This document shows positions 202-55,003 of a DNA stretch of 55,003 nucleotides, piece by piece. Source of the DNA: a virus. Its lineage: Duplodnaviria; Caudoviricetes. Both the position numbers and the translations under genes were made by a program. The stretch lies in IMG/VR virus record IMGVR_UViG_3300042837_000038, positions 1 to 55,003 of that record; one strand, written 5' to 3'. The notes beneath the pieces are model-generated. The model saw nothing but the letters and a program-made list of their open reading frames with translations. It did no database searches and was not told where the DNA came from. Each line of letters begins with the position of its first letter. Position 1 is the stretch's first letter.

Positions 202-256
202 GTGATCTTCATTTCCCCTGGTCAGAGACTTGTGATCTCCATTTCCCCTGGTCAGA
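202..256. repeat. Two 25-bp direct repeats GTGATCTYCATTTCCCCTGGTCAGA, putative operators
   Basis: 202-226 and 232-256, one mismatch, 30-bp period, just upstream of a TAGACT -10 box. Confidence 0.85.
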
Positions 257-263
257 CGGAGTG

Positions 264-269
264 TAGACT
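264..269 (+). promoter_or_regulatory. Putative -10 box (TAGACT) of early operon
   Basis: TANNNT upstream of first ORF; a second TAGACT at 173-178. Confidence 0.5.
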
Positions 270-314
270 AGGGAGTGTTCCACCCCCCGCCCCACCGCCC
301 CGAGGGAGATCGCA

Positions 315-695
315 ATGACCATCGAGACGATCAAGGAACTGTTCGCCAGCGACCCGAGCGAGGCCCTGTACCGCGCCGAGGAGAGGTTGAGCCGGAGCGA
401 GTTCATGGCGTTCATCGAGTGGACCACGGCCGAGAGTGAGGCGCCAGACGACATGACCCAGCAGATCCCCACCGACGACCGTCAGCTCGCTGCCATGCTC
501 CGCATGGCCGAACGCGAGGCGTACCGCCACGAAGCAGAGCGAGAGACGTACCGCCAGTTGGAGAACGAGATCCTGGCCTGCGACCCGACGCTCGACCCGA
601 GCAACACGACCGAGTGGGCCAACCACTACCGCGAGGTCGCCGCCCAGATCCGAGACCACCGCGCGAACGGTAACTACACCACGATGCACCGCTAA
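315..695 (+). CDS. Hypothetical acidic early protein
   Basis: 126 aa, GAGGGAG RBS, strong GC3 bias. Confidence 0.85.
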   Translation: MTIETIKELFASDPSEALYRAEERLSRSEFMAFIEWTTAESEAPDDMTQQIPTDDRQLAAMLRMAEREAYRHEAERETYRQLENEILACDPTLDPSNTTEWANHYREVAAQIRDHRANGNYTTMHR

Positions 696-757
696 GCGTC
701 CCCGGTGGTGCCCCGTTACGGCGGGGTGCACGCCGAGGGTACTTAGCCCGCAACCCC

Positions 758-777
758 GTTCATTGAAAACTCCACAG
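758..777 (+). promoter_or_regulatory. rRNA-leader/boxA-like motif GTTCATTGAAAACTCCACAG
   Basis: AT-rich island resembling the actinobacterial rrn leader motif TTTGAGAACTCAACAG; recalled similarity only. Confidence 0.45.
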
Positions 778-958
778 CGACAGGTTTGCGCCACCCACGG
801 AAGCGACCTACCGGCATTGACATGTCTGCTGGTGACTTAGCGTTAGCCTCACGGCTTTGTCTCCGTGTTTCGGTACCAGGCGCACACACACCCTACGTGG
901 GTGCAAGTGACGGCATGGACGTGTGGTTCGTGCCGCGACTCACCCCATGGAGGGGATC

Positions 959-2651: not shown

Positions 2652-3041
2652 GTGGACAGTGTAGAGGTACGGGTCAAGCGTGGTACCCGGATCATGGACG
2701 AGACAGTTCAGGGCTGGTACCAAAACGTCGACCTGAGCACGCTCAACATGACTAACGGTGACTTATGTGTTGCCGGTCAAGCGGTTCCGCTGGGAGGCGG
2801 TAACGAGGTCGCCCGTAGGTATGAGAACGAAAGTGGCTACTGGGCCATGAAGATCTACCTCGAAAAGCGGGTTGAAATGGGGACCCTCCCCCCGGAGGCT
2901 AGTGTCGTCTGGGCGGGCTTCTCTCCCATCTTCTCTCGCGCAACCCTCCGGGGAACAGACGCGGACGACCTAGCCGAGGCATGGACCGCAGAGATCCTAG
3001 AGCGCCGTCACCGTGACGCGGCCAGCATTCTGGAGGCGTGA
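2652..3041 (+). CDS. Hypothetical protein, paralog of 1598-1969
   Basis: RGTRIMDE..QGW...VD...LNM.....CVAGQ; GTG start after AAAGGGG. Confidence 0.8.
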   Translation: MDSVEVRVKRGTRIMDETVQGWYQNVDLSTLNMTNGDLCVAGQAVPLGGGNEVARRYENESGYWAMKIYLEKRVEMGTLPPEASVVWAGFSPIFSRATLRGTDADDLAEAWTAEILERRHRDAASILEA

Positions 3042-3230
3042 GTGGACTTGTTGATAGCACTCGCGGATGAGTTCCGATCCTTCGAATCGGCACCTGGCCG
3101 GACAGGCATGATCCTGCGGTTCGGCACGTTCGTGCTGGCCGTGAGTGGCGCTGGTGTCGCCACTGGATTCACGTATGCCGACGAAGCCACAGCCGGCGCT
3201 GTGTATGCCGTTGCCGCCGATCGTCCCTGA
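3042..3230 (+). CDS. Small membrane protein
   Basis: 62 aa with hydrophobic segment; GGAGG upstream. Confidence 0.55.
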   Translation: MDLLIALADEFRSFESAPGRTGMILRFGTFVLAVSGAGVATGFTYADEATAGAVYAVAADRP

Positions 3231-5840: not shown

Positions 5841-6176
5841 ATGTTCCAAACCATTGCAGACATCAAAGATGCCAACGCCAAAGTGGACGGTGTGTGGTTC
5901 AGCGCCGGTACCATGCGCTGGTTCCGTAGCCGGGTATCATCGCGGATCTACCCGCTCCCCGATGGGGGAGCCCTGTTCATCTCATCCGAGCAGGTCAACA
6001 GCACCCCCCGTAAGTACACCATCCGTCGTGCCCGGCCAGGTGGAACAATCGACACCGTGGGAGCCTTCCAGGCGCACCGTACGCTGGCACGGGCTCACCA
6101 CCATGCCCGCCAGTTCTGCACCCACCTGCACTATGCTGCCGCCCGTGCGGCGCGCACCTGTGGCACGGTGACGTGA
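5841..6176 (+). CDS. Conserved-looking phage hypothetical protein
   Basis: TIADIK.AN...G.WFS..TMRWFRSRV...FISSE pattern; GGGGGAG RBS. Confidence 0.8.
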   Translation: MFQTIADIKDANAKVDGVWFSAGTMRWFRSRVSSRIYPLPDGGALFISSEQVNSTPRKYTIRRARPGGTIDTVGAFQAHRTLARAHHHARQFCTHLHYAAARAARTCGTVT

Positions 6177-24573: not shown

Positions 24574-27500
24574 ATGGCAGGTGTCGGGGATTCCTGGGGA
24601 ACCGCAGAGGAGCTGCTGCACCCTCGTGACTCCCATGGCCGCTTCCGTTCTAGTTGGAAAATGTCGGCGGCGGCCGTCAAGAACATCCTCGGCATCCTGT
24701 CCTCTTTTCAGCCGCGCACCTTCGAAAGCGACGACCACGCCTCCAATTACCTGCGGGGAATTTCCCAGTCCCGCAGACCCAAATACGGTGCCAACGCCAT
24801 TGACAAGTTGGTTCGCAACTTCGCCGAAATCAACGGCAAGCTTCGTAAAGGTGACAGCTCCGGGCCGGATATCAAAGCCATCGACGCCGAGATGGAACCC
24901 CTCCCGGACAACCTCATCCTCAGCCGCGTGGTGGGTCCGGAAGCATTCGGACTGACCCCGGAAAACATTTCCCAACTGGAGGAATACACTGGGAAACTGG
25001 TGGCCGACCGGGGCTACTCGTCCACCAACATCGGCACCCCACTGCCGCACCAGGCGGGACAGATCACCATGGTGATCGCCACCCCGAAAGGAACCCGGGC
25101 AGCCCTGTCGGGTTCGGGGAACAAGCCGTCCCGGGAGGTGTTCCTGGACCGGGAGCAGCCACTACGGATCACCAAAGTGGATTCCGACGGCCAGGGTGGC
25201 TTCTACGTGCTGGCCGTAGCCACCGAGAAGGGTTCCAAGGGGAACATCCGGTCTAAGAAGCTAGGTCCCGCAGCCAAAGCACCGGCCGTTTCCCCAGCGG
25301 AGGAGGCGGGGGTACCGCAGGCCGCACCCGTACCGGGCCCCCCAGCGCCTGTACCGCAGGCACCCAACCCGGAAGCCCCTCAGGCCCCGGCTCCGGGGGC
25401 GTTGGTGGTCCCGAAGAAGCAGGGACGGCCGGCCGGACCACCACCGGCTCCACGGTCAGACGGTCACGTGGCGGAGAATCTGGGTGGGCAGGGTCAGTCA
25501 CGGGCTGAGGCTTCCGCTCCAAGTGCTCCGCGAGGAGCTGAAACGCCATCGCCAACAACTGAGACGCCTGAGCCAGCTCCTCATACACCTGGGCCAGAGG
25601 TGGCTCCTCAGGAGCCTTTCCGGGACGCATTCCGTAAAGCTAACATCAACGGACCGTCGTCCACGAGTCCCCGGCGTAAGGACTTCAACACCGCGTTCCT
25701 GGGTGCTTCTTCCGGAAAGCGGGAACCAACTTCCATTGTCGGGGAACTGGAAGATCGCATCTCCCTGTACGAGTCACAGTTGAAGGCCGACAAGGAGGAT
25801 GGCACCGATTCCGGCACCCTACCCAAGGACATCGGCCAGCTTCAGCAACTGGCACAGTTCATCCGTAAGCACTTCGGGCTTGGTGGAGTTAAAGAGGAAA
25901 AGAAGGAACCAGCCAAGAAGGCTCCGGCCAAAAAGGTAGCTGCCCCTGCGAAAAAGGTGGTCGCTCCGAAGGCGGCTCCCTCTACCCCAGAAGCCGCTGA
26001 CCAGGCCATCAAGGAGGCTGAACGGCCCAGACGCCCCCACCGTGCCAAGGTGGCCAAGAAGGCATCGGAGCCGGTATCGCTGGCCGAACCCACCAAGGAT
26101 GGCCGCAGTCTCGGTGACCGGTGGCTGGAAGCCGCCGACATGAAACGGGACGACCTCTCCGAGGTGGAACAGGTGGGTCTGAACCTGCTCGCGGACCAGG
26201 TGGCTTCCGGTGCCCTGTCCCGGCCTGAGGCGGCCAAGCGGTTGGGTGGCGGTAGCTCCACCAAATTGACCAAGGTTGCTGACGGGCTGGCCAAGGTTCC
26301 CCGCAACGCTGGTCCTAAGAAGGTTGCTAAGCGGTTAACGGAGCAACCAGTTCCAGACCGCAAGAAGCCTGGATTGGCCGCCGGAAAGACGAACGCAAAC
26401 CAGGTAACCAATGGGGACCGGATCCTGGTCCGCAAGAATGCTGCCGGAGACTGGGAAGCGTCATCCACCAAAACTGGTGCCACCACTCTCACGGTGACCG
26501 GGAAGGCGTCCACTAAGGGGCGGCGTTCTGGTATCCAGATCACGGGTACCGACGAGGACGGCAACCAGATCACGGTGAAGCCGGGGCCTTCGCATCAGAC
26601 CTTCTGGAAGGCGGAAATAAAGACCGCTCCTCCCAAAAAGGCTCCTGATGCCCCCCAAAAGGCTCCTGATGCCCCCCAAAAGGCTCCTGATGCGGGTCCG
26701 AAGATGAGTACCAAGCCACTGCTCCCCAATAACTGGGATCGGGGAGGTGGAGGTGGAGAGATCGATTTCCATGGTGACGGTGACATCGGTGTGGCTCTGG
26801 ATGCCCTCGGAGATGACAAGAAACTGGATGTTGACGGGGATGCTCTGGCGAATGTGTGGGGACGCCTGGCCACCAGGGCGGTGAGCGGGGACATCACCGA
26901 GCGGCAGTTGATAGATGAGACGAAGAAGTTGCGGGACAAGTTCCCAGCGGACTCGAAACCCTACAAGATCATCAACCGGGCCGCTGAGTCAATGGACGCA
27001 CCAGAGATGACAGCCCCGTCCCTGCCCTCTCAGGCACCAGCTCCCCTCAAGAAGCTGGCCCAGGATCTGGTCAAGATCCCGCTGGCACGCAAGGACCGCC
27101 CAGGAGATGGCCCATCGGAACTGACCATGCTTCAGGAGTTGATCCGCGACTGGATGGCCGGGGAGCTTTCACCACTGCGGTTCAAGACCCGGCTCGTTGC
27201 CCTGTCCAACAATCGTCACGAGAGTAGGGAAGGCAAGTTCGAGGTAGATCGTGTCATCAAGGAAGCCATTGACGCGATCGGGAAGATGGATCGTAAGGAT
27301 CTTCTGCCACCCACTCCACCGTTGCCCTCCCGGATCACCGCAGACGACATCGACAAGGCCCGTAGTGTTGAAACTATTTCCCAGGGTAACGTGGGCGATA
27401 ACCGTAAGATTGTCCTAGCTAACGGTAAGGAAGTCTTCGTCAAGCATTCCAAAAAATGGGGACTACGCAGCGGAGCCGAAATTACTGACGCCGAAGAGAT

Positions 27501-28047
27501 GGCTAATGCGTTGGCTCAAGCCATTGGAGCGCCCGTCCCTGACTTCGTGCGAGCCAATCGTGACACCATTTACACCGATTGGATTAACGGCACAGTTGGT
27601 TCCGAGATTATTGATGCCATCAATAACCCACTCCCCGGCAAGAAGGAGTTGTGGGGAAAGATTCTCAATAGTAAGGAATCCAAAGTCCTGGGGTTGTTCG
27701 ATGCCCTGTCCTTGAATCCAGATCGTCATCATGGAAACTGGATGATTGACGAGAAGGGGAAACTCAAGGCAATTGATCATGGTCAGACGTGGCACAAGAC
27801 GGCTCTGACCCCTCAGGAGCGGTTAAGCCTAAACGATTCTCCGTTCCTAAATAAGTGGATCTACGAGTATGGAGAGTTCAAGGACAATCCATTTACTCTT
27901 GATGATATTCAGAAGTTACAGGATCGAATCACGGCCATCCGGAACAGGTTTGAGGATCTGGATCGGGTTGACTGGTACAATAGAACTCTGGTTGTCCTGA
28001 AGCTGCTCAAGTCGCATGCCACAGGAACGGAGGATCTGATCACATGA
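24574..28047 (+). CDS. Large virion-associated protein: VIP2-like ADP-ribosyltransferase, low-complexity linker, PI3/4K- or HipA-like kinase
   Basis: HPRDSHGRF N-terminus; ART motifs NGKLR, LILSR, GYSST, SREVFL; kinase motifs VFVK, DRHHGNWM, AIDHG. Confidence 0.85.
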   Translation: MAGVGDSWGTAEELLHPRDSHGRFRSSWKMSAAAVKNILGILSSFQPRTFESDDHASNYLRGISQSRRPKYGANAIDKLVRNFAEINGKLRKGDSSGPDIKAIDAEMEPLPDNLILSRVVGPEAFGLTPENISQLEEYTGKLVADRGYSSTNIGTPLPHQAGQITMVIATPKGTRAALSGSGNKPSREVFLDREQPLRITKVDSDGQGGFYVLAVATEKGSKGNIRSKKLGPAAKAPAVSPAEEAGVPQAAPVPGPPAPVPQAPNPEAPQAPAPGALVVPKKQGRPAGPPPAPRSDGHVAENLGGQGQSRAEASAPSAPRGAETPSPTTETPEPAPHTPGPEVAPQEPFRDAFRKANINGPSSTSPRRKDFNTAFLGASSGKREPTSIVGELEDRISLYESQLKADKEDGTDSGTLPKDIGQLQQLAQFIRKHFGLGGVKEEKKEPAKKAPAKKVAAPAKKVVAPKAAPSTPEAADQAIKEAERPRRPHRAKVAKKASEPVSLAEPTKDGRSLGDRWLEAADMKRDDLSEVEQVGLNLLADQVASGALSRPEAAKRLGGGSSTKLTKVADGLAKVPRNAGPKKVAKRLTEQPVPDRKKPGLAAGKTNANQVTNGDRILVRKNAAGDWEASSTKTGATTLTVTGKASTKGRRSGIQITGTDEDGNQITVKPGPSHQTFWKAEIKTAPPKKAPDAPQKAPDAPQKAPDAGPKMSTKPLLPNNWDRGGGGGEIDFHGDGDIGVALDALGDDKKLDVDGDALANVWGRLATRAVSGDITERQLIDETKKLRDKFPADSKPYKIINRAAESMDAPEMTAPSLPSQAPAPLKKLAQDLVKIPLARKDRPGDGPSELTMLQELIRDWMAGELSPLRFKTRLVALSNNRHESREGKFEVDRVIKEAIDAIGKMDRKDLLPPTPPLPSRITADDIDKARSVETISQGNVGDNRKIVLANGKEVFVKHSKKWGLRSGAEITDAEEMANALAQAIGAPVPDFVRANRDTIYTDWINGTVGSEIIDAINNPLPGKKELWGKILNSKESKVLGLFDALSLNPDRHHGNWMIDEKGKLKAIDHGQTWHKTALTPQERLSLNDSPFLNKWIYEYGEFKDNPFTLDDIQKLQDRITAIRNRFEDLDRVDWYNRTLVVLKLLKSHATGTEDLIT
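26637..26692 (+). repeat. 21-bp in-frame tandem repeat (KAPDAPQ, about 2.7 copies)
   Basis: AAAAGGCTCCTGATGCCCCCC repeated. Confidence 0.9.
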
Positions 28048-28271
28048 GACGCATCAACTTCGTCAAGACGGATGATGATAAGAAAATCCTAGGATCAATC
28101 ATCGAATCATCTGGTGAGTTGCATTTCAATGGGATGGGATTTACCGTATACAACTCCCTAAAAACGGCTTACGGTGAATCTCCTCCTACAGACAAGAAGA
28201 TATTTGATACCCTTGCCTCGGGTTGGTCTAACGGGCCAGTAAAGACTGTCATGGAAGGGGAGGCCAAGTAA
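28044..28271 (+). CDS. Small AT-rich protein, possible immunity partner
   Basis: ATGA overlap with the ART/kinase gene; same low-GC codon usage as the kinase domain. Confidence 0.7.
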   Translation: MRRINFVKTDDDKKILGSIIESSGELHFNGMGFTVYNSLKTAYGESPPTDKKIFDTLASGWSNGPVKTVMEGEAK

Positions 28272-28432
28272 TGGCATGTGCGTGCAACGGCGGGACGTCC
28301 GAAGTGGTGCCGGCCGTGGAACCCCAGTACATGGTGTCCCTCCCCAACGGTCAGACCGTCGTGGTCCAGGGTGAACACGCCGCCAAGGTAGAGGTCACTA
28401 TGGCTGGCGGAGGAAGCTACGTCAGGCGTTAG
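28271..28432 (+). CDS. Small MxCxC protein (53 aa)
   Basis: MACACNGG...VSLPNGQ...AGGGSY; typical of genes upstream of capsid in actinophages. Confidence 0.7.
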   Translation: MACACNGGTSEVVPAVEPQYMVSLPNGQTVVVQGEHAAKVEVTMAGGGSYVRR

Positions 28433-28443
28433 AATGGGCACAT

Positions 28444-28518
28444 ACCGGGGTGGAGCAGGTCGGTCAGCTCACTGGGCTCATAACTCAGAGGTCACAGGTT
28501 CAAATCCTGTCCCCGGCA
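28444..28518 (+). tRNA. tRNA-Met (CAT), initiator-like
   Basis: Cloverleaf; TGGAGCAG D-arm, CTCATAA loop, GGTTCAAATCC T-arm, 1:72 mismatch; TAGAAT at 28430-28435. Confidence 0.9.
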
Positions 28519-28522
28519 CAAG

Positions 28523-28590
28523 TGGATCGGATGGGAATCGAACCCACCTCCTCGGCGCTATGACCAGCTCAGCCACTGAGCTACCGACCC
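28523..28590 (-). tRNA. tRNA-like gene with truncated anticodon arm
   Basis: GGGTCGG acceptor, GCTC/GAGC D-stem, GTGGG-TTCGATT-CCCAT T-arm; only 19 nt between D and T arms. Confidence 0.65.
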
Positions 28591-28716
28591 AGGTATCCCC
28601 TCCCACCTACGGTGGAACGCAACTCTCGGCCTCATCACCGATTTTGTCCACATTTCCTTGCGGTTTATGTCCGGTGGTAAAACGGGGATACGACTAGTGT
28701 ACCATGAAGGTGTCCA

Positions 28717-28799
28717 GGATCGGTGCTGTTGGAACAGCTCCCAAGCCTCGAAAACTTGGGAAACCCCGGGCGTGGGTTCGATTCCCACCCGATCCACCA
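28717..28799 (+). tRNA. Atypical tRNA-Ser (CGA) with encoded CCA
   Basis: GGATCGG/CCGATCC acceptor, CTCGAAA loop, GGTTCGATTCC T-loop, ACCA end; short D-arm. Confidence 0.7.
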
Positions 28800-28923
28800 G
28801 AACTTTTCACCAGCACCATGTAAGTGCTACGATCCCCTTGATCTTCATCCTGCGCTGTGTGCCGGGACCGAGGGTGGCTGTGCTTGAGAGCCGCGCCAAT
28901 ACGCGACTCTTTGGAGCACTCTC

Positions 28924-30633
28924 ATGTTTGTCATCCCAGAGGACCTGAGTACCTTCTCCACGAACGCCGTGCAGGGGTTCATCGAGCAGGCGACCCAGGA
29001 ATACAACACCCTGAAGGCCCAGTTCACCACGGACAACGTCACCGACGAAGCGCTTGACCAGCTCAAGGCCCTGCGGCAGTTCGTCAAGGTGGACGGTCCA
29101 GCGGAGATCACCTCCCGCCAGCAGCGTCAGGCCGACTTCACCGCCCTCGACGACGAGCCCGAGACCCCCGAAACCGAAGAGGTTGAAGAGGTTGAGGAGC
29201 CGGAGGCCGAGCCGGAGCCGGTAGTGGCTGCCGCGAAGGCGAAGGCGCCACGGATCAAGGACATCGCCAAGGACACCCCGGAGCCAAAGGAGTCGCCGGC
29301 CCAGGCCCGGCCGCAGTATTCCTCACTGGTGGCCGCAGCCGGTGTCCCGAACTACAACACCGGGGATCAGTTCAACACGCTCCTGGACGTGGCCAAAGCG
29401 TTCGAGGCACGCACCGCAGGCTTCACCTCCATGGTGACCAGCGGACGCGGCCACGAAGTGCAGCAATACCCGGTGGCGGTGCTCCAGCGCAACTACCCGG
29501 ACGAGTTCTCGGTCAACGGTGACGAATCCGACTACGAGAAGCTGCTCAAGGTTTCCGACGAAACCCGCCTGCCCGGTGGTTCGCTGCTGGCCAGCGTGGA
29601 CCTGCGCCGCAAGGAGATCCTGGCCACGCAGCCCGAACGGGATGCCCTCGTCGCCGCCGCAGGCTGGTGCGCGCCGTCGGAGACCGACTACGACATCTGT
29701 CTCCAGATCACCACCGACGGTCTCCTGGACGTGCCCGAGGTGCAGGCCCGCCGTGGCGGTATCCGGCACAACACCGGTATCGAGTTCGACTCGATCTTCG
29801 GTTCGGGTACCGGCTTCTTCGACCTCACCGAGGCCCAGGTCGCCGCTGGCACCACGAAGACGTGCCTGGAAATTCCCTGCCCATCGTTCGTGGACACCCG
29901 GCTCGGTGTCACCGGCCTCTGCCTGACCGGAAACATCCTGTCGATCCGGGGCTACCCGGAGTTCACGGCGGCGTTCACCCGTGGCGCTCTGGCCGCGTCG
30001 GCTCACCAGGTCAACCGGGAGCAGATCCTGGACATGATCGCCGACTCGACGGCAGTGGACCTGACCGGCCTGGCTCCGTGGGCCACGGACGGTTCCACGG
30101 TGTCTCAGGTCATGTCGGCGGTGGAACTGGCAATCGTGGACATCAAGTACCGGCTGCGGCTCCAGCGTTCGGCCACCCTTGAGGTGGTTATGCCGTTCTG
30201 GATCCTGGCCCAGATGCGGGCGGACTGGATCCGGCGCACCGGCATGGACAACGGGCAGATCGCGCTGGCGGATTCGGCGATCAACTCGGCGTTCTCGGCC
30301 CGGGGTGCCCGGGTCCAGTACGTGTACGACTGGCAGGACGCCTTCAGCAACGGTGCGGCGACTGGTACCGGTGCGGACACGCCGGTGTCGATCTTCAACC
30401 GGTCGCTCCAGTTCCTGGTCTACCCGGCCGGCACCTGGGTGCGCGCTGTGTCCGACGTGATCACGCTGAACTCGGTGTACGACTCGACCAAGCTGGCCAC
30501 CAACCAGGTGACCCACCTGTTCACGGAAACCGGTTGGGCCATGGTTCGCATGTGCCCGGTTTCCCGGGTCTACACGGTGCCTGTCTGCCCGAGCGGTAAG
30601 ACCACCATCGCCGGCACTCTCACCTGCCCGTAA
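28924..30633 (+). CDS. Major capsid protein (hexamer type) with N-terminal scaffold-like domain
   Basis: LVAAAGWCAPSETDYD, LLDVPEV..RRGGI, KTCLEIPCP, YPAGTWV; resembles cluster-B-like actinophage capsids. Confidence 0.9.
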   Translation: MFVIPEDLSTFSTNAVQGFIEQATQEYNTLKAQFTTDNVTDEALDQLKALRQFVKVDGPAEITSRQQRQADFTALDDEPETPETEEVEEVEEPEAEPEPVVAAAKAKAPRIKDIAKDTPEPKESPAQARPQYSSLVAAAGVPNYNTGDQFNTLLDVAKAFEARTAGFTSMVTSGRGHEVQQYPVAVLQRNYPDEFSVNGDESDYEKLLKVSDETRLPGGSLLASVDLRRKEILATQPERDALVAAAGWCAPSETDYDICLQITTDGLLDVPEVQARRGGIRHNTGIEFDSIFGSGTGFFDLTEAQVAAGTTKTCLEIPCPSFVDTRLGVTGLCLTGNILSIRGYPEFTAAFTRGALAASAHQVNREQILDMIADSTAVDLTGLAPWATDGSTVSQVMSAVELAIVDIKYRLRLQRSATLEVVMPFWILAQMRADWIRRTGMDNGQIALADSAINSAFSARGARVQYVYDWQDAFSNGAATGTGADTPVSIFNRSLQFLVYPAGTWVRAVSDVITLNSVYDSTKLATNQVTHLFTETGWAMVRMCPVSRVYTVPVCPSGKTTIAGTLTCP

Positions 30634-54127: not shown

Positions 54128-54303
54128 CGAGGATCCATTCTATCCGTGATGCCGGTAGTCATCATTTCTTCGATATCGTCCATGTTGGGTATCGCTACGA
54201 AGAACTGAAGGTTCTTCACTCGGTGCGGGATGGCACCCACCACGGAGGTGTTAAGGATCTCATCGAAGAGATGGGACAGTTCCACTACTTCTGGATCTCC
54301 CAT
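54112..54303 (-). CDS. Small divergent protein
   Basis: MGDPEVVELSHLFDEIL...; overlaps RAMP gene stop. Confidence 0.55.
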   Translation of the reverse strand: MGDPEVVELSHLFDEILNTSVVGAIPHRVKNLQFFVAIPNMDDIEEMMTTGITDRMDPRWAKR

Positions 54304-54965
54304 TCCGTCACCTTGTAGCGACCAAAACCCTGACTGCGGGAGGCGCCGATACCCTGCTGCTCCCCGGTCAGCCAGAGTAGCGCCCACTGCTCGTTGGTGA
54401 ACTTGTAGTCCGTCGTCAACGTGAACGTCAGGTTGGCGTCCTCGATGTACTCCTCGTACTGGATGGCGGAGCCGAACCGGGAGTGAACGAACCGCTGGTT
54501 GATGCCGGTGGCTTCCTTTACCCCGAAGTAGACCCGGTCCTCCAGGACGAACACGTGCTCCGGGAAGAACGACTTGGCCGACTTACCCTTCTGCTTGCCG
54601 TCGGCGGTTTCGCCACCGAACTTGAACTCCGGCCACGGGAACCGAATACACGCCGACTCCTTGATGGCCGCCTTGATGCAGCGACCTTCCAGGTAAAGAC
54701 CGTTGGCGTCCTGCTTGAAGCCGGTGAGGTTGCGGTTGGCGGCCACCAGTTCAGCGGCCTCACCCTCTTCCACGCCACGCTCCACCATGGTTTCCAGGAC
54801 CGCGCTCTGGACCAGGGTCTCCTTGTCCACGAGCTTGGACTTGATCCAGCCCTCGGCAACCTTCGGGTCGGTGGGCGTGGCACCGGCGATCACCGGGATG
54901 TTCAGCGTCACCCGGTAGGTGAACGGGTACGCCTTGGGGATGAACTTAGCGAAGACGCTTTCCAC
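54285..54965 (-). CDS. Stand-alone Cas7-like RAMP superfamily protein
   Basis: YRVTL (beta1), GLYLEGRCIKAAIKESA (PYIPGSSxKG-like helix), thumb-like hairpin, C-terminal G-rich loop GIGASRSQGFGRYKV; AAGGAG RBS. Confidence 0.8.
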   Translation of the reverse strand: MESVFAKFIPKAYPFTYRVTLNIPVIAGATPTDPKVAEGWIKSKLVDKETLVQSAVLETMVERGVEEGEAAELVAANRNLTGFKQDANGLYLEGRCIKAAIKESACIRFPWPEFKFGGETADGKQKGKSAKSFFPEHVFVLEDRVYFGVKEATGINQRFVHSRFGSAIQYEEYIEDANLTFTLTTDYKFTNEQWALLWLTGEQQGIGASRSQGFGRYKVTEWEIQK

Positions 54966-55003
54966 GTATTGCTCCTTGACTAGATGAACGATTGGAACTG
55001 TTA

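Follow-up and report, generated by a model that had tools for sequence, protein, structure and literature searches.

VIPR systems have been described in two 2026 preprints (bioRxiv 10.64898/2026.04.26.720920 and 10.64898/2026.04.26.720927). According to the text of the first, which covers 667 systems, a VIPR locus encodes Vipr, a minimal phage RAMP, together with an accessory vap gene; its vrRNAs have 9-16 YNNGG repeats and, after them, a 3' tail, and double-stranded DNA is read by a one-base-skip code (10.64898/2026.04.26.720920). The same text distinguishes seven VIPR types, some of them with NNNGG, YNNNG or NNNNG repeats, and mentions arrays that are 'staggered' or interspersed with ribozymes (10.64898/2026.04.26.720920). 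In the text of the second preprint, the Vipr of Escherichia phage SUSP1 is reported to contact the repeat base G1 by H17 and D177, G2 by R138 and W178, and Y3 by E71, M72, R179, C173 and T175, and the helical bundle (K33) is reported to contact the skipped target base (10.64898/2026.04.26.720927). Here we compare with these systems a gene for a small RAMP protein that lies at one end of a phage sequence of 55,003 nucleotides (nt), the IMG/VR record IMGVR_UViG_3300042837_000038 (Caudoviricetes), which was analysed over its full length and is referred to below as the window.

The gene is an open reading frame (ORF) of 226 amino acids (aa) at 54285..54965 on the minus strand, with a GTG start codon and an AAGGAG Shine-Dalgarno sequence 6 nt upstream. 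We consider it likely that its product is a Vipr-type RAMP, which would be the protein component of a VIPR-like RNA-guided system in actinomycete phages. The original prediction, made from the letters of the window, had assigned the protein a RAMP/RRM architecture on the basis of features that included the peptides GLYLEGRCIKAAIKESA and GIGASRSQGFGRYKV, both of which are present in it (residues 89-105 and 205-219, respectively), and had proposed either a minimal RNA-guided effector of the phage or a Cas7 decoy. The VIPR reports to which it referred are the two preprints cited above, and the first of its two proposals agrees with the RAMP fold, the remote homology to Vipr and the repeat arrays of related loci that we describe below.

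The AlphaFold2 model of the protein, built from an input alignment of 34 homologues (A1), has a mean pLDDT of 82 and a pTM of 0.75. Its single RRM core, with beta1, helix 1 (residues 94-106) and a helix at residues 191-204, is accompanied by a three-helix insertion (34-76), a long beta hairpin forming the thumb (154-185) and a glycine-rich G-loop (205-217), which together make up a minimal RAMP. A Foldseek search of the PDB returned 114 matches at E ≤0.001 (best E 1.6e-6), and the top matches listed are chains of CRISPR RAMP complexes, namely type VII Cas7, Csm3, Cmr and gRAMP; an AcrIIIA2 complex is in the list solely because of its Csm3 chain. In an independent all-against-all search (VIA), ranks 1-16 were all taken by CRISPR RAMPs (Z 8.2-6.7), among them SsoCsm (Z 8.2), Csm3 (Z 8.1; root-mean-square deviation 3.4 over 144 residues), type VII Cas7 (Z 8.0) and Csf2 (Z 7.7). 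It should be noted that a Z near 8 is not overwhelming according to the note of the VIA tool itself, and that it is the uniformity of the match list that carries weight. Structure prediction thus recovered the RAMP fold that the original prediction had proposed. Searches with sequence profiles gave little: no Pfam family was matched at E ≤10, PHROGs gave no meaningful match and PADLOC none, the NCBIfam search returned only Cas6 (E 0.033) and Csm4 (E 0.06), in the G-loop region and far below the cut-offs, and the profile searches of the PDB yielded nothing significant, with Cas matches at E 0.2-1 only and no solved Vipr chain recognised. No curated Cas7 or RAMP family model of Pfam, NCBIfam or PADLOC was therefore matched.

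A relationship with Vipr itself emerged when families were compared. The SUSP1 locus was identified from its flanking repeats (vipr and vap genes at 28031-29061); as a positive control, scans for YNNGG tracts and for period-5 signals recovered its four vrRNA tracts (27614-27974 and 29160-29239) and none elsewhere in the 50 kb. Alignment by hhalign of a profile built from 43 diverse members of the present family (A3) with one of 30 relatives of the 195-aa SUSP1 protein (A2) gave a probability of 91.3% and an E of 9.4e-7 over 133 columns, extending from before helix 1 to the C-terminus, and the negative control, A3 against the unrelated profile A4, gave 1.7%. Comparison of the single sequence with SUSP1 Vipr gave an E of 0.066, with the same collinear motifs. 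The protein is thus related in sequence, remotely, to an experimentally characterised Vipr.

The family is large. There were 1032 protein matches at E ≤0.001, and a profile search of 1.84 billion representatives returned 842 clusters (50% identity), 203 of them at E ≤1e-30, across which the G-loop and helix-1 motifs are strongly conserved. Among isolated phages, the sole relative is in Microcystis phage Mae-JY09 (35% identity). The 14 related loci found in genomes are mostly from Actinomycetes (Streptomyces, Nocardiopsis, Streptosporangium, Actinomadura, Streptacidiphilus and Pedococcus) and include one metagenome-assembled genome labelled Burkholderiaceae and one labelled Caldilineaceae; the isolates Nocardiopsis tropica JCM 10877 and Streptacidiphilus carbonis NBRC 100919 are the sources of the loci L052 and L058, respectively. 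The family is one of actinomycete phages and prophages. Three other proteins (P0325, P0330 and P0355), in Gordonia, Rhodococcus and Streptomyces records, are relatives of the SUSP1-type Vipr at ~40% identity. Actinomycetes appear to host two distinct Vipr clades.

The second part of the evidence comes from the DNA next to the gene in its relatives. We compared 58 related loci, the 14 genome loci just mentioned and 44 viral ones with up to 6 kb on each side, and their upstream sequences proved to be rich in C and poor in G, and a CCGACTACCC-like motif recurs in them. Arrays were found by reading these sequences, and an array was called where at least four copies of the motif CGACnnnCC were present. 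By this threshold, 38 of the 44 viral loci and all 14 genome loci contain an array (52 of 58), a result of the comparison of homologues' flanks that the original prediction had suggested. The density of CGACnnnCC is 9.2/kb in the 1.5 kb upstream of the gene, 1.2/kb elsewhere on the same strand and 0.74/kb on the other strand. The C-rich, G-poor composition extends over 300-1400 nt, and the usual place of the arrays is the gap that separates a conserved upstream gene, which we call c1, from the ribosome-binding site in front of the RAMP gene. They end at most 60 nt from the start codon in at least 25 viral and 9 genome loci, and in several loci the first motif contains the stop codon of the upstream gene (TGACTACCC) and, at the other end of the array, the last motif directly adjoins the Shine-Dalgarno sequence.

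The distances between motifs are quantised. The lengths of the units peak at 28, 33, 38, 43, 48 and 53 nt, and of 421 units measuring 25-60 nt, 203 are congruent to 3 modulo 5 and 92 to 4. When units are anchored on the motif, the frequency of C is 0.95, 0.93, 0.86, 0.85 and 0.84 at positions 14, 19, 24, 29 and 34, respectively; one position before each of these peaks it is 0.60-0.71, two positions before C or G is favoured, and the other two positions are near-uniform. Because of these unit lengths and motif-anchored base frequencies, we describe the array as runs of NN-S-Y-C pentamers that are interrupted by a 3-nt GAC insert and then a pentamer with a fixed TA. The phase-breaking CC-GAC-TA-sCC motif thereby separates units of 4-9 pentamers. 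The relatives accordingly have, in noncoding DNA flanking the vipr-like gene, a five-base repeat made up of a conserved trinucleotide and a hypervariable dinucleotide. As for the GGY-NN repeats envisaged by the original prediction, the five-base periodicity stands, but the motif on the gene strand is NN-S-Y-C and not the canonical one; runs of at least four tandem YNNGG (GGY/NN) repeats adjoining the gene were found neither above chance level in the window nor at a consistent position in the 44 viral relatives. A search of four array loci against Rfam returned tRNAs only and no other family. Long N-terminal extensions of the RAMP protein and antisense ORFs that had been considered in related loci were rejected, the extensions being stop-free C-rich array sequence, which is noncoding.

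The arrays are hypervariable between near-identical phages. In the loci L017 and L056, the genes are 95% identical, the last 30 nt upstream of them 97% and the 300 nt downstream 83%, and the arrays are 65% identical, which is the floor value of unrelated pairs. On a smaller scale, two adjacent units of L052 differ only in one block of variable positions. One family member, L030, lies in a phage record of 163 kb that is complete and has direct terminal repeats (G005). It has two arrays, with 16 and 15 copies of the motif, downstream of the gene instead of upstream.

In the window, the sequence stops at position 55003, 38 nt upstream of the RAMP start codon, as the original prediction had remarked when it suggested that a guide array could lie beyond this point and could have broken the assembly. 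What remains upstream of the gene is a short 5' leader with the Shine-Dalgarno sequence CAAGGAGCAATAC (54966..54978, minus strand) and, according to a comparison of 45 upstream regions, the proximal edge of the missing array region (54979..55003, minus strand), which includes CATCTAGTC, a degenerate version of the CGACTAgCC motif with which the arrays of relatives end, directly next to the Shine-Dalgarno sequence. The end of the window recurs, identical, in a second metagenome contig (L048), which runs on for another 46 nt before ending itself, and this extension consists of C-rich pentamers (CCCCG CCCCG CCCAA ACCCG CCCCC ACTACCC). Logan contigs from DNA runs extend 46 nt (X1) and 263 nt (X3) past 55003, for which lengths and no letters are available, and a scan of viral contigs with a 30-nt stretch for an extension of the window retrieved no other record. 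Contigs often stop within arrays: in 8 of the 44 viral contigs the end is no more than 400 nt upstream of the gene (41-61 nt in five of these), three genome contigs break off within an array, and L042 starts within one. The window would retain nothing of the locus but the RAMP gene and the 38 nt preceding it, and the array, probably together with c1, would lie beyond the contig end, where the assembly broke. The suggestion of a lost array is supported as far as the data allow.

The upstream neighbour c1 is a co-oriented gene of ~170-230 aa that precedes the RAMP gene in 28 of the 44 viral loci, and it is the sole recurrently conserved neighbour in these loci, the others being variable phage genes. 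Its model is confident (pLDDT 94) and largely helical. No match was found in Pfam, PADLOC or NCBIfam, and in the ESM Atlas c1 falls into unnamed viral clusters only. The c1 profile (A4) found nothing in the window, which ends before the place where c1 would be expected; at the other end of the contig, the ORF at 252-794 (minus strand) was considered as a candidate c1 and rejected (hhalign probability 0.05%).

We also searched for candidate targets, comparing the variable dinucleotides of 254 well-phased units with 598 kb of local sequence in which the arrays were masked. The numbers of exact matches of seven dinucleotides were 1, 29, 2 and 4 for skips of 0, 1, 2 and 3 bases, and the corresponding means for shuffled orders were 2.5, 3.3, 2.3 and 1.6. 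One unit of L006 matches the antisense of the RAMP-gene codons K/N-V-A-E-G-W-L, perfectly in 25 and with one mismatch in 13 of 54 other sequences, and all seven skipped bases fall on wobble positions. The window is one of these 13, and the match site in its gene is at 54844..54864 (plus strand; codons K-V-A-E-G-W-I), with agreement at 13 of the 14 variable bases under the one-base-skip rule. This unit, the last full one of its array (5926-5969), also matches the RAMP gene of L006 itself at nt 98-118 (14/14, again with one base skipped), which was the only self-match of such quality among the guides tested and could indicate autoregulation. As a single case that fits the published skip rule, the L006 target is suggestive. 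There was no enrichment for targeting of the own locus, and guides with multiple hits other than the L006 unit were scattered and showed no pattern.

By analogy with SUSP1, copies of the Vipr-type protein would line up along a repeat RNA, with one protomer per five-base repeat, and each protomer would hide the three conserved bases and expose the two variable ones. The exposed bases would jointly read a DNA target, passing over every third base of it, and this reading would silence genes of competing phages or prophages. The guides would come from a densely packed array whose short units each contain 4-9 NN-S-Y-C pentamers. RNA binding, filament formation, the DNA-reading code and silencing are suggested here by homology and by the anatomy of the locus.

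Several observations weigh against the view that this is a VIPR-like system. As far as the arrays are concerned, the window itself has neither an array nor c1 according to the tract scans and the profile search, and three relatives (L004, L039 and L046) have full upstream sequence and no array of this motif; the other three viral loci for which no array was called (L011, L036 and L041) have only 40-56 nt of upstream sequence, with one copy of the motif each. Scans of the 44 viral loci for canonical YNNGG tracts gave six weak tracts (6 of 8 units) at no consistent position, and none of these loci reached a period-5 spectral power of 6 or more. The short units, together with the change of phase that the 3-nt insert causes from one unit to the next, hid the arrays from these scans. 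With respect to the protein, the hhalign alignment places A208, S209 and E171 at the positions of SUSP1 D177, W178 and R138, so that the residues reading G1 and G2 are not kept at the three alignable positions; the fourth, H17, lies outside the alignment, and R179 aligns with R210, which is invariant in the family. Likewise, c1 has no detectable similarity to SUSP1 vap1, and its fold is uninformative (best Foldseek E 0.88; best VIA Z 5.8, for a helical hairpin only). The excess of matches with a skip of one is essentially due to the one L006 unit, which hits a conserved gene in 38 sequences, the distributions of the best matches per guide (182 guides) show no difference between skip rules or relative to shuffles, and a guide of L030 with 15 dinucleotides had no match with up to three mismatches in five source records and 401 Actinomycetes genomes. 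Finally, it is only indirect evidence that suggests that the array is transcribed, and from which strand.

It could be argued that the repeat region acts as DNA, whether as an origin of the iteron type, as a partition site or as an array of operators to which c1 binds, and that the RAMP is unrelated to it. The short conserved motifs, spaced by 33-53 bp and situated between two genes, would suit this explanation, as would c1, a confident all-helical protein whose fold is unmatched, and the window does encode ParB-like and primase functions. However, the asymmetry between the strands extends over 300-1400 nt, the gene strand being C-rich and G-poor in 51 of the 52 array loci; the array is quantised in five-base steps with two hypervariable positions per pentamer; its content turns over fully between phages whose flanks are 95-97% identical; and it is linked to a homologue of a proven binder of repeat RNA. 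None of this is expected of protein-binding DNA sites, and we therefore regard the explanation as unlikely.

The link between the protein and the array throughout the family also bears on the second proposal of the original prediction, namely that the protein is a Cas7 mimic that poisons class 1 CRISPR complexes of the host. A Cas7-like fold in a phage without cas context is what such an anti-CRISPR decoy would look like, but its nearest detectable sequence relative is Vipr and not Cas7 (the Cas matches of the PDB profile searches have E values of 0.2-1), and the RNA-binding G-loop and the helix-1 motif are strongly conserved over the 842 clusters. The decoy proposal found no support, and we consider it very improbable. 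Even less probable in our view, to the point of being negligible, is an ordinary CRISPR-Cas locus whose remaining genes lie beyond the contig end. Admittedly, the contig is ~84% complete and ends 38 nt from the gene. Nevertheless, c1 is the only recurrent neighbour in the 44 viral loci, in the company of variable phage genes, and the repeats are units with a period of 5 nt, unlike CRISPR repeats and spacers. PADLOC, to which the window protein and one c1 representative were submitted, the other neighbours in the relatives not being scanned, matched neither. In line with the original prediction, which had recognised no cas genes and no CRISPR array in the 55 kb, PHROGs (47 ORFs) and PADLOC (18 ORFs) revealed no cas genes in the window, and Tandem Repeats Finder no CRISPR-like array, its only result being a 21-nt sequence repeated three times. 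YNNGG tracts in the window are at chance level (one run of four units versus 0-2 in 20 shuffles), and the original prediction had likewise found no GGY-NN periodic tract there.

If the locus is indeed a VIPR-like system, it is intriguing which strand would serve as the guide. On the one hand, in 51 of the 52 array loci it is the gene strand that is C-rich, whether the array is upstream or downstream of the gene, and the array leaves hardly any space to the c1 stop codon on one side and the Shine-Dalgarno sequence on the other. Contigs from the RNA libraries of two studies cover parts of the gene of the window, and two of them (X9 record 14 and X11 record 5) both stop at 54978, directly after the last degenerate motif, where the DNA contigs continue; the shared stop hints weakly at an RNA 5' end. 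Furthermore, the loss of the guanine-contact residues, with the arginine for position 3 kept, fits a repeat of the form S-Y-C/NN with C at position 3. On the other hand, the repeat of the opposite strand is G-G/A-S-N-N and may belong to the 'related consensus' (NNNGG) of the preprint text. Its gradient of conservation (G 0.95, G/A 0.88, a weak position, N, N) mirrors GGY/NN, and all published VIPR types are written with G in that text; both points favour the G-rich strand. The one inverted locus, L042, has the only array that is G-rich on the gene strand, and when it is read on the G-rich strand its layout is the same as that of SUSP1, which also favours that strand. Between its RAMP stop codon and the array there is a strong hairpin terminator (3005-3047; 15-bp stem with 11 GC pairs and a TTTT tail), and the array begins ~10 nt after this terminator, which leaves no room for a promoter on the same strand and so favours the C-rich strand. 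Scans of L052 and L042 for consensus promoters found nothing, and promoter-like hexamers read by eye in L042 are below threshold. On balance, we lean towards the C-rich strand as the guide.

A more specific possibility, which we put forward tentatively and to which we give somewhat less than an even chance, is a cytosine-type VIPR. In such a system, a C-rich guide would be co-transcribed between c1 and vipr and cut at GAC-TA into mini-guides of 33-53 nt with S-Y-C/NN repeats. The alignment suggests that the pocket for the pyrimidine at position 3 would have been kept (R210) and the two guanine pockets lost (D177A, W178S and R138E). The strand bias of the arrays, their fit between c1 and the Shine-Dalgarno sequence, the terminator of L042 and the stop of the RNA-library contigs at the last motif, all described above, speak for this possibility. 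The gradient on the opposite strand and the G in all types of the preprint text, both mentioned above, count against this possibility. Judging from the sequence matches, some units, such as that of L006, may target the conserved vipr codons K-V-A-E-G-W-L, including those of the phage itself, which would suggest autoregulation or warfare between VIPR systems.

As regards the remainder of the window, it is the entire IMG/VR record, linear, 84% complete according to CheckV and with a G+C content of 61%, and its gene content is siphovirus-like (WhiB-like, ParB-like, primase/polymerase and endonuclease VII functions among the 47 ORFs searched with PHROGs). At 202-256, immediately beyond the 3' end of the minus-strand ORF at 252-794, there are two direct copies, 30 nt apart, of the 25-nt sequence GTGATCT[T/C]CATTTCCCCTGGTCAGA, which may be an operator or another binding site. 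Two tRNA genes, for Met (CAT) and Ser (CGA), at 28444-28519 and 28717-28799, sit between an ORF of 1157 aa (24574-28047) and leftward genes. Residues 100-208 of the product of this ORF weakly match an ADP-ribosyltransferase family of PHROGs (E 5.6e-6), and the 21-nt tandem repeat mentioned above lies within it, at 26632-26693.

VIPR is a newly reported way in which RNA reads double-stranded DNA, and it has been suggested to be the ancestor of CRISPR RAMPs. The clade described here is large, with 842 clusters from phages and prophages of Streptomyces-like bacteria and with arrays that contain dozens of putative mini-guides. If the guide is C-rich, the repeat handle would be swappable from GG to a cytosine-based motif, which would widen the design space for programmable binders and provide natural contrast pairs for the study of handle recognition. 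In addition, the arrays break short-read assemblies, and orphan RAMP genes at the ends of viral-metagenome contigs may therefore be truncated VIPR loci.

Compared with CRISPR class 1 RAMPs, the protein resembles Csm3 of type III-A, type VII Cas7, Cmr4 and Csf2 in fold (Z 8.2-7.3 over 124-162 residues; Foldseek E ~1e-6), and its G-loop is similar to that in the Cas6 and Csm4 models at scores below threshold. It differs from them in that no Cas family is matched at the cut-off and that neither a CRISPR array nor cas genes were found in the window. The backbones of CRISPR RNAs have a period of 6 nt (5+1), whereas the repeat here has a period of 5. With the Cas7-mimic anti-CRISPR AcrIF25, the protein would share a phage-borne Cas7-like fold without a cas operon; here, the protein travels with a repeat array and c1 and is homologous to Vipr.

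The likeness to VIPR, and in particular to type II as represented by SUSP1, is closer. Going by the preprint texts, the RAMP is small in both, with one RRM, a G-loop, a helical insertion and a hairpin that forms the thumb, and both are found in phages or prophages without cas genes, in a two-gene locus (here with c1 as the candidate partner) flanked by noncoding repeat tracts. The repeat period is five bases with two hypervariable bases in each, and the G-loop arginine is kept (R179 of SUSP1, R210 here). In one case, a guide matches coding sequence that is conserved, the skipped base being at the wobble position, and this guide, like some of the vrRNAs in the preprint, is directed at vipr genes themselves. 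The terms Streptomyces, Actino and C-rich are absent from the text of 10.64898/2026.04.26.720920; as our comparison is drawn from the text of that preprint, the clade may already be among its seven types. Set against that text, the clade differs in its gene-strand repeat motif, which is NN-S-Y-C instead of YNNGG, and in its punctuated array of mini-units, which are short (33-53 nt, with 4-9 variable pentamers), separated by a 3-nt phase break (GAC) and a fixed-TA pentamer where VIPR has a ~40-nt tail with a pseudoknot, and usually located between c1 and the start of the RAMP gene. It differs further in the residues that read the handle, D177, W178 and R138 of SUSP1 being replaced by A, S and E, in its candidate accessory gene, which lies upstream of the RAMP gene and has no detectable similarity to SUSP1 vap1, and in its hosts, which are Actinomycetes, whereas SUSP1 is a phage of Escherichia.

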